UHGV virus genome: UHGV-1634937
DNA from: a virus
Direction: 5' to 3' (one strand)
DNA length: 22,898 nucleotides
Part shown: positions 5,275 through 8,190 of the stretch, piece by piece
Layout of the letters: each line of letters opens with the position of its first letter
How positions within the stretch are numbered: the first letter of the stretch is position 1
Notes under the pieces: model-generated
The model's input: only the letters and a program-made list of their open reading frames with translations
What the model was told of the DNA's origin: nothing
Databases searched by the model: none
Made by a program: the position numbers and the translations under genes

Positions 5275-5306
5275 ACATGCCGCGCCTTACGGCATGTTTT
5301 TATTTT
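5275..5306 (+). terminator. intrinsic-terminator-like hairpin oriented on the plus strand
   Basis: ACATGCCG / CGGCATGT 8-bp stem, 7-nt loop, followed by TTTTATTTT on the plus strand only; lies between two minus-strand genes. Confidence 0.4.
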
Positions 5307-5329: not shown

Positions 5330-5346
5330 AGATTTATTAGAGCAAT
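5330..5346 (-). promoter_or_regulatory. C1-operator-like site (16/17 match to ATTGCTCTAATAAATTT) with overlapping promoter-like hexamers
   Basis: Minus-strand reading ATTGCTCTAATAAATCT; TTGCTC, 17-bp spacer, TAAAAC follows. Abuts the stop of the HAD-like gene. Confidence 0.5.
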
Positions 5347-5870: not shown

Positions 5871-5904
5871 GAAAAAAATGCTGGTGGGAGCACTCCACCA
5901 GCAT
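5871..5904 (-). terminator. intrinsic terminator (minus strand)
   Basis: ATGCTGGTGG / CCACCAGCAT 10-bp stem with GAGCACT loop; in the minus-strand RNA it is followed by UUUUUUU; sits 20 bp downstream of the 5925..7187 gene. Stem contains Chi octamers in both orientations. Confidence 0.55.
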
Positions 5905-5924: not shown

Positions 5925-7187
5925 TCAGCGAACGTAAATAGTGCCGCCGTTCTCTTTTTCCCATGCATCGCTACGTGCATAGCAAACATCGAGAAGTCTT
6001 CTTGCCGCAGTTTCCTCTAAACCCAATTCGACAACCAACTGCTCATGACGGCGGGTAACCACATCAAACAGGGTATGCAACCCTTTAGTTGCCAGATCAT
6101 CAATGAATTCCGGTTCGAACGGCAGCTCTGTATCTGCCAACATAACCTCTTGCGCCCACTCAACTCGACGGACCAATTCCGGGCGGCGGCTTTCCATCTC
6201 TTTACAGATCAATTCATGGAAGAACTCTACCCAACCTTCCGGCTGGAACTCGCCGAAAATGGCCAGCGGCTGGAAGTTTGGCATCAACCATTCGTTGATT
6301 CGGATATCAATGGCATAGCCCATGTCGCAGCAGAACTGATAAGCAAAGTCCAGCTTAGAAACGATATAAGGACGCTCGTTATTGAACTCTTTAGGCGATG
6401 AGATCCCATAAGCCAGGAGGCGCGGGAAGAAGGAGATTTGCCCTAACGTCGGATGAAGTTTGCTTGCAGGGAAACGGCGCTCAGTAATGCCATACATTTC
6501 CTTCTTGAGCGTCGCAAATTTGGCATTCTCATTAACCAGCGCGGTAACCTCTGCTTTTTTATTAGCAAATGCCACGCGCGCTTCGCTTGCATCTTTAATA
6601 GTTTTTTTGAGCTGTTGGTTAAGGTCGGCGACCTGCTTACGCAGTTCCTGTCGCTCGCTTTTAGCTTTGTTATAGCGTTTCTCAAGGTTAAAAGGATCAA
6701 GTTTCATGATCTCTTTATATTGAGATTTTAGCGTTGAAATCTGTGAGTTCCGCAGTTCAACCATCGCGGTCATTTCATTGAGTTTTGTTTCCAGCTCAAT
6801 GCTTATACGTTCGGCATTATCAGCACGCTGGTTGGCGTCATGCGTCGCATCGTCGATCGCGTCCTGTTGCTGGCGTTTCAAATGTTCAATTTGTAGCTGA
6901 AGCTCTTCAATTTCTTTACCCTTCAGACCGAGATCCAACTGCATATTTTCAGCTGCATCTACCAGGGAGTTATGGCTATCAGCTTCTGCGTTATAAACAT
7001 CAATAAGCTGTGCGTGAAGCATCTCCGCTGACTGAACCGCATTATCAAAAAAACGTGCTGTGAGGTCATCACAACTAACGCGGCGTTGCGCGGCCCGGAT
7101 GTTCTGGATAATGGCCGGGATACCGGCATTCAGGACATCAGGGATAGATACATTTTCGATTGATTGGTTTTGTGCTGAAGTGCTCAT
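5925..7187 (-). CDS. hypothetical protein with long N-terminal coiled coil (420 aa)
   Basis: Long ORF; heptad-like charged N-terminal half (ELQLQIEHLKRQQQ..., LRKQVADLNQQLKK); no catalytic motif recognised. Confidence 0.55.
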   Translation of the reverse strand: MSTSAQNQSIENVSIPDVLNAGIPAIIQNIRAAQRRVSCDDLTARFFDNAVQSAEMLHAQLIDVYNAEADSHNSLVDAAENMQLDLGLKGKEIEELQLQIEHLKRQQQDAIDDATHDANQRADNAERISIELETKLNEMTAMVELRNSQISTLKSQYKEIMKLDPFNLEKRYNKAKSERQELRKQVADLNQQLKKTIKDASEARVAFANKKAEVTALVNENAKFATLKKEMYGITERRFPASKLHPTLGQISFFPRLLAYGISSPKEFNNERPYIVSKLDFAYQFCCDMGYAIDIRINEWLMPNFQPLAIFGEFQPEGWVEFFHELICKEMESRRPELVRRVEWAQEVMLADTELPFEPEFIDDLATKGLHTLFDVVTRRHEQLVVELGLEETAARRLLDVCYARSDAWEKENGGTIYVR

Positions 7188-7188
7188 T

Positions 7189-7407
7189 TCAAAGTTCCGT
7201 ATTAGCTTGTGCTTCGGTCATTTTTCCTAAGTATGAAGGAGGAAGGACTACGCAATTTGTATCCAGTCCCTCACCTATGGCAGCCTGTAAAATTCTGGCT
7301 AAGGTGAGTCTCTTGTTGCGATACCTGGTGATGACATGCCTGATACCGCCGGTCGGCGTAACAAAGGCGATCAGCCAGTAGTGATATTTCCGTCGGAATG
7401 GCCACAT
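7189..7407 (-). CDS. possible small ORF or untranslated leader (72 aa if translated)
   Basis: Open frame but no convincing RBS at the 7407 ATG; lies between the operator/terminator region and the 420-aa gene. Confidence 0.2.
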   Translation of the reverse strand: MWPFRRKYHYWLIAFVTPTGGIRHVITRYRNKRLTLARILQAAIGEGLDTNCVVLPPSYLGKMTEAQANTEL

Positions 7408-7421
7408 AGTGCACCCTGTAG

Positions 7422-7438
7422 ATTGCTCTAATAAAAAA
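7422..7438 (+). promoter_or_regulatory. C1-operator-like site, plus orientation (14/17)
   Basis: ATTGCTCTAATAAAAAA on the plus strand; inverted relative to the copy at 7471-7487. Confidence 0.45.
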
Positions 7439-7462
7439 CGTGATGAGTGTACATCACGTTTT
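7433..7462. terminator. bidirectional intrinsic terminator
   Basis: AAAAAA CGTGATG AGTGTA CATCACG TTTT: perfect 7-bp GC-containing stem flanked by an A-run and a T-run. Confidence 0.6.
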
Positions 7463-7470
7463 AAAAATAT

Positions 7471-7487
7471 GGAATTATTAGAGCAAT
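7471..7487 (-). promoter_or_regulatory. C1-operator-like site (14/17) with overlapping promoter-like hexamers
   Basis: Minus-strand reading ATTGCTCTAATAATTCC; TTGCTC, 17 bp, TAAAAC; 2 nt downstream of the stop of 7489..8190. Confidence 0.45.
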
Positions 7488-7488
7488 A

Positions 7489-8190
7489 TTATTCTGATTC
7501 TCGCTCAAAAAATGAGCTGATAAGGGGAAGCCAATCCTCTGACACTTCGCGAGGTCGCGGTTTGCCGTGGAAAAAGATTATTCGGCAGTCTTTTGGTAAT
7601 GCCCCATTCCCCCTGGAGTAACGCGCGCTCGCATATTTTGAACCAGGTTCCACAACATCGGCCTTGTAACTTACAAACCATCCTGGATACAGATCCTGAA
7701 ATGCTGGTGTATCATCGCCCATAACCTTTCGTAAGAACCCCTGGTCACCCCAGCACTCAGTAGTGACACAACGAGAAATCCAACCTTCCGGATCTTGCCA
7801 GAATGAACTCCAGATATGCGCTTTAACACTATTTGGTATCCACAGGGCACCGCTGCCACGATATTGTGGATGGTAAAAATCCCTAAGCATGGTGAAGCTG
7901 GTTGGTGGATGCTCTAGGATTGGGCGTATATCACCGGCAATAACCGTGTCCAAATCCAGATAGAACAGATCATCGGTTATATCCGGTCGGAACAACTCGA
8001 TTTTCGCCCACCAGCCACGGCACTTTTGCCACTGGTTGATCAATGGGACAACTTTGACGCCAGGTACATGTAAACGCTTCAGGTCTGTCAGGCAAATAAT
8101 TTCATAGCCTTTTGGCAGTTGATTAACCAGCCACTGCACATCGGAAGCGTTATAGTCACCACCAGAGCGAAAAACTAAAGCAATCTTCAT
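7489..8190 (-). CDS. putative nucleotide-sugar transferase-like protein (233 aa)
   Basis: ATG overlaps the phosphatase TGA (ATGA); WAKIELFRP ... YLDLDTV resembles a DxD-type glycosyltransferase motif (weak, by eye). Confidence 0.4.

Follow-up and report, generated by a model that had tools for sequence, protein, structure and literature searches.

The 66 bp that separate the pmgQ and pmgR genes of P1-like phages may serve at once to end one transcription unit, to begin the next, and to place the new beginning under repressor control. We propose, at odds a little better than even (a probability of roughly 0.55), that the junction holds a terminator acting one way, on the sense strand, set between two inverted C1 operators, with a C1-repressible early promoter for pmgR-pmgS nested in the same space. 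The DNA analyzed, called the window below, is a stretch of 22,898 nucleotides from the virus genome UHGV-1634937, and the junction occupies its positions 7422-7487. The operators and the promoter prediction are not new, as both already appear in the genome annotations of P1 and P7. The hairpin that lies between the operators is unannotated, and much of what follows concerns the direction in which it acts and its relation to the -10 hexamer of the promoter.

Identity of the locus

By its sequence the window is that of a P1/P7-type phage. From 6900 to 8300 it is 100% identical to Escherichia phage vB_EcoM-Ro157c2YLVW, 99.8% identical to P7 and 99.3% identical to P1, and the 66-bp core is sequence-identical to the P1/P7 locus and lies between the same genes, pmgQ/hdmD upstream and pmgR-pmgS/shtA-shtB downstream (P1/P7 names). 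The P1 record is written in the opposite direction; near this site, position w of the window is AF234172 position 89,639 - w. According to the open reading frame list and the P1 and P7 annotations, the neighboring genes are all on the minus strand of the window, which is the strand called sense throughout. The gene pmgQ (hdmD in P7; 7489-8190, minus strand; 99-100% identical to the P1 and P7 records) is the last of the upstream unit and ends in a TAA stop codon at 7491-7489. The first gene of the downstream early unit, pmgR (shtA in P7), has its Shine-Dalgarno sequence AGGGTG at 7417-7412, its ATG at 7407 and its coding sequence at 7189-7407 on the minus strand, an assignment that draws on the open reading frame list, the annotation and the RNA-seq step-up described below. 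It is followed by pmgS (shtB in P7; 5925-7187, minus strand), which is assigned from the open reading frame list and the annotation. Positions 7422-7487, judged by these matches, are the pmgQ-pmgR intergenic region, and carry two C1 operators already known, Op86a and Op86b, in opposite orientations. An Rfam search of the whole window at gathering thresholds returned three tRNAs only, with no match at the pmgQ-pmgR junction.

The two C1 operators

Op86a, now OpmgRa (ATTGCTCTAATAATTCC; 7471-7487, minus strand), starts 1 nt past the pmgQ stop codon. Op86b, now OpmgRb (ATTGCTCTAATAAAAAA; 7422-7438, plus strand), is inverted with respect to Op86a and has the hairpin on one side and the ribosome-binding site of pmgR on the other. 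Each operator matches 14 of the 17 positions of the asymmetric 17-bp C1 consensus, ATTGCTCTAATAAATTT, as quoted in PMC8546580, the first 13 consensus positions all being matched, and the two share a perfect 13-nt inverted repeat, ATTGCTCTAATAA, at 7422-7434 and 7475-7487. Such matches are not a matter of base composition: the window contains 6 sites with at most 3 mismatches to the consensus, the mean for shuffled sequence is 0.08 (n = 100), and none of the shuffles reached 6. Both sites are annotated in the records for P1 (AF234172) and P7 (AF503408), where Op86a is a protein_bind feature for ‘phage repressor C1’. AF234172 gives the labels ‘monovalent C1-controlled operator OpmgRb’, former Op86b, and OpmgRa, former Op86a, controlling pmgR and pmgS, and AF503408 names the same two sites Op(sht[a]) and Op(sht[b]). 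An earlier note on this DNA, made from the letters without database searches, had called two C1-operator-like sites in opposite orientation at 7422-7438 and 7471-7487, and it is borne out by both the consensus match and the annotations; C1 is predicted to bind at each. The same note described the 66 bp as a composite palindrome, which is true of both arms and not of what joins them, as 12 unpaired asymmetric bases (7463-7474) are present in the right half only.

Among relatives of P1 the operator arrangement is kept. The Op86a core, TTG[C/T]TCTAATAA, is present in 24 of the 24 distinct junction variants that we aligned, and the 40-nt gap between the operator cores is constant across lineages, the exceptions being 3 of 120 contigs whose A- or U-tract has gained or lost 1 nt. 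Op86b ends in AAAAAA, not in the AATTT of the consensus, because its A-rich end is also the U-tract of the hairpin, and this double use likewise explains why the U-tract run never varies although the corresponding positions of Op86a do.

A conserved stem-loop between the operators

The hairpin (7435-7462, minus strand) is a perfect 11-bp inverted repeat, with its 5′ arm at 7462-7452, a 6-nt loop at 7451-7446 and its 3′ arm at 7445-7435. The core that contains G and C is 7 bp long (7458-7452 with 7445-7439), has 4 G-C pairs, and folds at -8.5 kcal/mol alone. The hairpin as a whole folds at -13.4 kcal/mol on either strand, with z scores of about -5.3 to -5.6, and none of 200 shuffles folds as well. 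When the operator arms are also paired, the full 71 nt reach a folding energy of about -27 kcal/mol (-26.9).

Is the stem maintained among relatives? Junctions were gathered from P1-clade contigs, a Salmonella plasmid, the Cronobacter phage JK004 and metagenome lineages by way of their PmgR homologues, and the 24 distinct variants, representing about 10 lineages, were aligned (alignment A3, used for all pair counts). The comparative depth is modest: the PmgR relatives are all at least 72% identical, and a scan of genome contigs yielded P1-clade loci only. The layout is the same in every lineage, with an operator core, 40 nt, and an inverted operator core, and with the hairpin and its T-run adjoining the downstream operator. 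Stem pairing is kept in 95.8% of the cells of the alignment, and three pairs show double changes. The covariation score and the paired fraction were unmatched in 500 shuffles; since the lineages are related, this is support for the stem and not proof of it.

The double compensatory changes run from G-C to A-U, from A-U to G-C, and from A-U by way of G.U to G-C. Where P1 has the stem arms AAAACGUGAUG/CAUCACGUUUU, the Salmonella-type junction has AAAACAUGGUG/CACCAUGUUUU, which differ from those of P1 by two double compensatory changes. JK004 and lineage L311 have GAAGCAUGGUG/CGCCAUGUUUU, with three G.U pairs, and in L314 one of the G.U pairs of this type has been turned into G-C. The L317 stem is re-registered and rich in G+C, CGGCAUG/CAUGCCG, and is followed by U6. 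Among 120 independent IMG/VR contigs the stem is perfect in 98, has G.U changes only in 12, has a mismatch in 7, and is accompanied by a 1-nt indel of the A- or U-tract in 3. The invariance of the U-tract is in part confounded with Op86b, and that of the 5′ arm with the annotated -10 hexamer.

Pairing of the operator arms in RNA was also considered as a selected feature, and was rejected. Column 7/64 of the alignment does covary (C-G, U-A, U.G), but all three operators within 20 kb in the L314 lineage read TTGTTC, and the covariation is explained by this lineage-wide operator change, not by RNA pairing.

One might suppose that the inner palindrome works at the level of DNA, as the binding site of a dimeric protein or as a cruciform, and not as an RNA element. 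A perfect 11-bp palindrome, such as the window has, is what such a site would call for. The relatives, however, keep the RNA pairing, by means of G.U pairs and the re-registered stem of L317, rather than a DNA motif, and the palindrome does not resemble the -22 box of P1 late promoters. A DNA-level site seems to us scarcely credible.

Direction of the probable terminator

On the sense strand the stem-loop has an immediate U-rich tract, as an intrinsic terminator should, and its conservation is compensatory. The U-tract, read from the sequence as UUUUUUAUU (7430-7438, minus strand), shares bases with the A-rich end of Op86b, and alignment positions T53-T57 do not vary. Does the hairpin also terminate transcription from the other side? 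The earlier note took it to be a perfect bidirectional terminator hairpin, and there is something to be said for this, as the stem of the window and of P1 is indeed perfect over 11 bp whichever strand is read, and an A-tract and a T-tract flank it on opposite sides. The perfect stem stands, but the two directions do not: by the evidence of tails, scores and conservation, the hairpin is not a bidirectional terminator. Its tails are asymmetric, UUUUUUAUU (U6) on the minus strand versus UUUUAAAAA (U4 and then A5) on the plus strand. The terminator score (the d’Aubenton-Carafa discriminant) is +10.7 for the sense strand and -20.7 for the antisense strand of the window, and in all main lineages the sense score is positive (10.7-28.4) and the antisense score negative. 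The G.U pairs of the relatives become A.C mismatches in the antisense RNA, so that the alignment holds 22 G.U cells for the sense RNA versus 4 for the antisense RNA, and 11 mismatches versus 29. The divergent lineages fold at -11.4 to -16.5 kcal/mol in the sense direction and at -5.8 to -11.0 kcal/mol in the antisense direction. L317 is without the upstream A-tract, and neither the open reading frame list nor the annotation has a plus-strand gene that converges on the hairpin.

A terminator scan of the whole window puts the junction in perspective. Only four minus-strand sites score above -5: the pmgQ-pmgR junction, a strong site after pmgS, the ban leader, and dbn/gene 5. The dbn/gene 5 junction, where transcription is convergent, scores on both strands, as expected of a true bidirectional site. 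The 10.7 of the pmgQ-pmgR junction compares with about 29-32 at two other sites in the window. A consensus scanner called no terminator and no promoter at the junction in the window; the terminator is missed because the scanner extends the stem into the U-run, and in L317 the same scanner calls a terminator, on the sense strand only, at the homologous place.

The hairpin is, on this evidence, a conserved sense-RNA stem-loop with a U-tract, which is most simply read as a moderate intrinsic terminator that ends the pmgL/pmgN-pmgQ unit. It is probably leaky, the stem being short and flanked by A/U pairs, and transcripts arriving from that unit are predicted to end there in part. In AF234172 and AF503408 the hairpin is unannotated, an absence that is uninformative, as terminator annotations are lacking throughout the 23.5 kb of P1 examined. 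These 23.5 kb include places with strong candidates from the scan. RNA-seq at 30 min gives 11.66 for pmgQ, 10.81 for pmgR and 11.70 for pmgS (PMC8201110), gene-level values that are not length-normalized and that neither show nor exclude termination.

A sense-RNA element need not be a terminator, of course. The hairpin might instead be a 3′-end stabilizer, or a processing site, of a transcript that reads through from pmgQ into pmgR. Conservation in the sense direction only would fit any role of the sense RNA, the terminator score is only moderate, and there is no clear fall in expression from one side of the junction to the other at 30 min; moreover, the full read-through RNA can fold into an interrupted helix of 24 bp that includes the operator arms (71 nt, -26.9 kcal/mol). 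Yet an invariant U-run comes straight after the stem, as is characteristic of intrinsic terminators, the stems of L317 and L314 have become richer in G+C with the U-run retained, and the covariation in the operator arms is owed to the change to TTGTTC and not to pairing in RNA. We therefore regard another role for the stem-loop as unlikely, and keep to the one-way terminator in what follows.

The early promoter

Is there a promoter at the junction at all? Evidence for one comes from published RNA-seq of P1vir infections. At 10 min, the wild-type logFC values are 7.39, 6.99 and 6.95 for the three table entries preceding pmgQ, 7.05 for pmgQ itself, and then 9.02 for pmgR and 9.99 for pmgS; the corresponding values for dksA are 6.09 for the entry before pmgQ, 6.23 for pmgQ, 9.00 for pmgR and 9.09 for pmgS (PMC8201110 Table S1). 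A second data set has, at 10 min, 6.08 for ppp, 5.94 for pmgQ and 7.96 for pmgR, and, at 20 min, 8.08 for pmgQ and 9.36 for pmgR (bioRxiv 10.64898/2025.12.28.696737). The early step-up, of at least 4-fold, thus falls exactly between pmgQ and pmgR, with pmgR and pmgS about 2-3 log2 units above pmgQ at 10 min (two studies, four conditions). The values come from voom/limma and are probably not length-normalized, and because pmgR is short, the true step per base would be larger. The RNA-seq also places pmgR-pmgS in the early class, together with the other C1-controlled genes ant1, hrdC and pmgT. From the jump of at least 4-fold we conclude that a local early promoter acting at the pmgQ-pmgR junction is real.

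One could imagine operators without a local promoter. C1 bound beside the terminator would then be a roadblock, or a looping partner for distant operators, and pmgR-pmgS would be fed by read-through only. The promoter hexamers of the window are at chance level (see below), and a protein bound at Op86b, which adjoins the U-tract, could halt polymerase there, both of which would suit such an arrangement. But in both data sets pmgR and pmgS exceed pmgQ at least 4-fold at 10 min, a difference that could not arise by read-through alone. CRISPRi blocks in pmgO to pmgQ, in addition, are not polar on the essential pmgR (PMC10695390), a weak argument, as knock-down of pmgR itself failed to score. We think it very unlikely that the operators act here without a promoter of their own.

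Where, then, is the -10 hexamer of the promoter? The annotated PpmgR of AF234172, a predicted sigma-70 promoter (7458-7486, minus strand), has the -35 hexamer TTGCTC at 7486-7481, a 17-nt spacer, and the -10 hexamer TAAAAC at 7463-7458, implying a start at about 7452-7450. Loop conservation suggests an alternative candidate (7446-7474, minus strand), whose -10 hexamer, TACACT, occupies the loop of the hairpin at 7451-7446, whose -35 would be the weak TTCCAT (7474-7469) or TCCATA (7473-7468), and whose implied start is at about 7441-7439. A promoter weight matrix, a rough one with approximate hexamer frequencies, gives 6.1 bits to the annotated PpmgR and 6.5 bits to the loop site, which is the best score in the 70-nt junction; on the same scale Pban scores 8.6 bits and lac 10.5 bits. 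The best score of a shuffled junction has a median of 7.9 bits, and 77% of shuffles equal or beat 6.5. In the window, the hexamers alone are at chance level and give no statistical support for either candidate.

Comparison among relatives bears differently on the two. The annotated TAAAAC is replaced by TGAAGC in JK004, L311 and L314 and by TGCGGC in L317, and TAAAGC and TGAAAC are recurrent variants inside the P1 clade. Every change of TAAAAC in relatives preserves pairing in the sense RNA, and therefore these bases seem to be constrained as a stem arm, not as a -10 hexamer. The loop, by contrast, never departs from TAnnnT in the 24 variants (TACACT, TATCAT, TATTAT or TACGCT), its first, second and sixth bases being T, A and T throughout. 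T, A and T at those places are the three most conserved positions of the -10 hexamer. In 8 of the 8 non-P1 lineages scored, the loop site has the top score, at 8.5-10.2 bits, as TTTACT-16-TATCAT or TATTAT, and the consensus scanner calls a promoter at the loop site in L317 and L314.

The combination TTGCTC-N17-TAAAAC is also found at the operator Op88, without a hairpin, which favors the annotated -10 in P1 itself. The earlier note had pointed to TTGCTC-N17-TAAAAC hexamers overlapping the right-hand operator. The hexamers are there and are those of the annotated PpmgR, but the claim does less well for TAAAAC in particular, which is lost in relatives and scores at chance level. For the exact hexamers it may be said that they equal the annotation, that the identical pair occurs at Op88 together with a common ATTTTTAAAAC, and that the experimentally named Pban likewise takes the TTGCTC of its operator as -35; against them, TAAAAC is without the conserved final T of a -10, and it changes in relatives while the sense pairing stays. 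The reading of the earlier note as it was written, a bidirectional terminator combined with a promoter of exactly TTGCTC-N17-TAAAAC whose -35 lies inside Op86a, is in our judgment quite unlikely. As to which -10 is used, conservation leads us to a slight preference for the loop over the annotated TAAAAC. It is a tentative step further, and one we hold to be possible though doubtful, to suppose that the annotated PpmgR hexamers are wrong and that the true -10 is TAnnnT, the unvarying loop sequence of the terminator that ends the upstream operon.

A P1 late promoter, dependent on Lpa, was also looked for and rejected. Such a promoter has a 9-bp -22 box of the type AAGTnACTT about 4-9 bp upstream of its -10, and the arms of the hairpin are unlike the annotated -22 boxes of LPpmgL/LP26 and LPhot (tagtcattt, aagttactt).

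A model for the junction

How might terminator, promoter and operators work together? Transcription arriving from the pmgL/pmgN-pmgQ unit would meet an intrinsic terminator, of moderate strength and probably leaky, that consists of the stem-loop and U6 and works in the sense direction alone, and a C1-repressible early promoter for pmgR-pmgS would be nested within the same 66 bp. The -10 of this promoter would be in the 5′ arm (TAAAAC) or in the loop (TACACT, the better-conserved candidate). With the annotated -10, transcription would start at about 7452-7450, at the end of the 5′ arm or in the loop, and with the loop -10 at about 7441-7439, in the 3′ arm. RNA from upstream would carry both arms. 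RNA born at the promoter would start inside the hairpin, would be without the 5′ arm, and would be unable to form the terminator. The earlier note had made much the same suggestion, that transcripts from the promoter escape while read-through from upstream stops, and its geometry holds, as the predicted start is inside the hairpin for either -10. We infer the insulator logic, and with it the exact start site, from this geometry.

The operators are placed to suit such a promoter. Numbered from the predicted start, Op86a is at about -36 to -20 with the annotated -10, or -46 to -30 with the loop -10, and Op86b is at about +13 to +29 or +1 to +17, respectively. RNA polymerase at the promoter would span both operators, with Op86a covering or adjoining the -35 region and Op86b a short way past the start, so that C1 at either site should block initiation in a lysogen. 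That polymerase would reach over both would also be a plain reason for having two sites.

If the loop -10 is the true one, a stem-loop of only 28 nt would both stop incoming polymerases and launch transcripts unable to form the hairpin, with a repressor site on each flank, and P1-like phage-plasmids would possess a conserved punctuation module that is three things in one. Under the proposal, one promoter prediction would be amended and one terminator missing from the annotation would be added. Outside P1 biology the import of this is small; for P1, a classic phage and the backbone of many phage-plasmids that carry resistance, it would make the transcription map tidier. One practical use may be mentioned: as a natural packing of terminator, promoter and operators into 66 bp, the junction could serve as a compact repressible insulator part.

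Comparison with known systems

Terminators that overlap the next promoter are known in compact genomes, and a start site nested in a terminator is neat but unsurprising in a compact phage genome. The present picture is already known, with a modest refinement, and the sole mildly novel reading is that which has the annotated -10 wrong and the real one in the terminator loop. OpmgRa/OpmgRb with PpmgR in P1, and Op(sht[a])/Op(sht[b]) in P7, are the same locus, and the operators and hexamers of the window do not differ from theirs. As a stem-loop with an immediate U-run at the end of a unit, conserved in structure and variable in sequence, the hairpin is like the canonical intrinsic (Rho-independent) terminators of E. 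coli and its phages. It is unlike them in having a short stem with A/U flanks, in sharing bases with a repressor site, and in containing a nested promoter.

Two other C1-controlled promoters of P1 invite comparison. At Op72a/b-Pban, a bivalent C1 operator, there are likewise two inverted C1 sites at one promoter, with TTGCTC as the -35. The Op72 sites, however, overlap (with an 11-bp offset) and serve a promoter with a good -10, TAATAT, whereas the Op86 sites are 49 bp apart, center to center, with a hairpin between them and a poor -10. Op88 and its promoter P2pmgT resemble the junction even more in detail, having TTGCTC-N17-TAAAAC, ATTTTTAAAAC at an equal distance from the operator, and a position immediately past the stop codon of the gene before it, which for Op88 is pap. 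Op88 differs from Op86 in being a single operator and in having its TAAAAC outside any hairpin. The hexamers of Op88, too, are not conserved in relatives, where TTGTTG is found in L318 and TAAGGT in JK004.

Discussion

Are the C1 operators of the related phages and plasmids all of one kind? In the lineage of L318 (Salmonella contig ABACHN010000013.1), to which the related sequences L311 and L314 also belong, all three C1-type operators found within 20 kb (9920-9936, 9969-9985 and 12061-12077 in L318) read ATTGTTCTAATAA or TTTGTTCTAATAA, with T rather than C at consensus position 5. Because every one of the three carries this T, the sequences suggest that the operator has been altered lineage-wide, and the specificity of the repressor has possibly shifted as well. 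The related L313/L209 is mixed, in that Op86a, one of the inverted pair at the pmgQ-pmgR junction, carries the change and its partner Op86b does not.

Within the window, Op88 (5330-5346, minus strand), a single operator near pmgT, lies directly 3' of the pap stop codon, and sequence comparison shows that it has TTGCTC-N17-TAAAAC in common with Op86a. About 35 nt beyond Op88 is a hairpin, CATGCCG...CGGCATG (5276-5296; terminator score +15.2 by the d'Aubenton-Carafa discriminant), which, since its T-run is on the plus strand, looks like a terminator directed against pmgT. We note that in Cronobacter phage JK004 (L319) only 2 nt separate the C1-type operator ATTGCTCTAATGAATGT (15228-15244, minus strand) from the downstream hairpin AAAACGCCAA-TTA-TTGGCGTTTT and the T-run that comes after it, a second example of an operator adjoining a terminator-like hairpin, at a locus different from that of Op86.

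Other terminator-like sites are present in the window. A scan by terminator score ranked 5879-5903 (minus strand; a 9-bp stem of -15.6 kcal/mol, then T7, score +31.8) highest in its half of the window; the site separates pmgS from pap, and the P1 record has no annotation for it. Read on either strand, the hairpin GCCCGGCGTTCGGGC (15941-15955), at the convergent junction of dbn and gene 5, has the score of a terminator; it is a genuine site of the bidirectional type and serves as a contrast. About 160-180 nt separate the Op72/Pban promoter from a downstream hairpin at 21333-21352 (minus strand; -12.2 kcal/mol, T7, score +29), where P1 is annotated 'dicF-like region'; this hairpin has no Rfam match at the gathering threshold. 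The three tRNA genes that Rfam places on the minus strand (18634-18706, 20710-20782 and 20788-20860) agree with the P1 ban-region annotation.

For many plasmid records the match to the query stops within pmgQ, at about 7666, when 7150-7666 is compared with 7667-7900. These match ends suggest a mosaic boundary there, with P1-like plasmids having alternative 5' parts of pmgQ.

If the -10 in the hairpin loop (TACACT, 7451-7446, minus strand) is used at the pmgQ-pmgR junction, then in the stretch 7433-7441 (minus strand) the transcript would start with the G or A immediately 5' of a run of six U. The pyrBI and codBA promoters are controlled by reiterative transcription. It is pure speculation that the junction might resemble promoters of this type, the likeness being a predicted start directly before a U-run.
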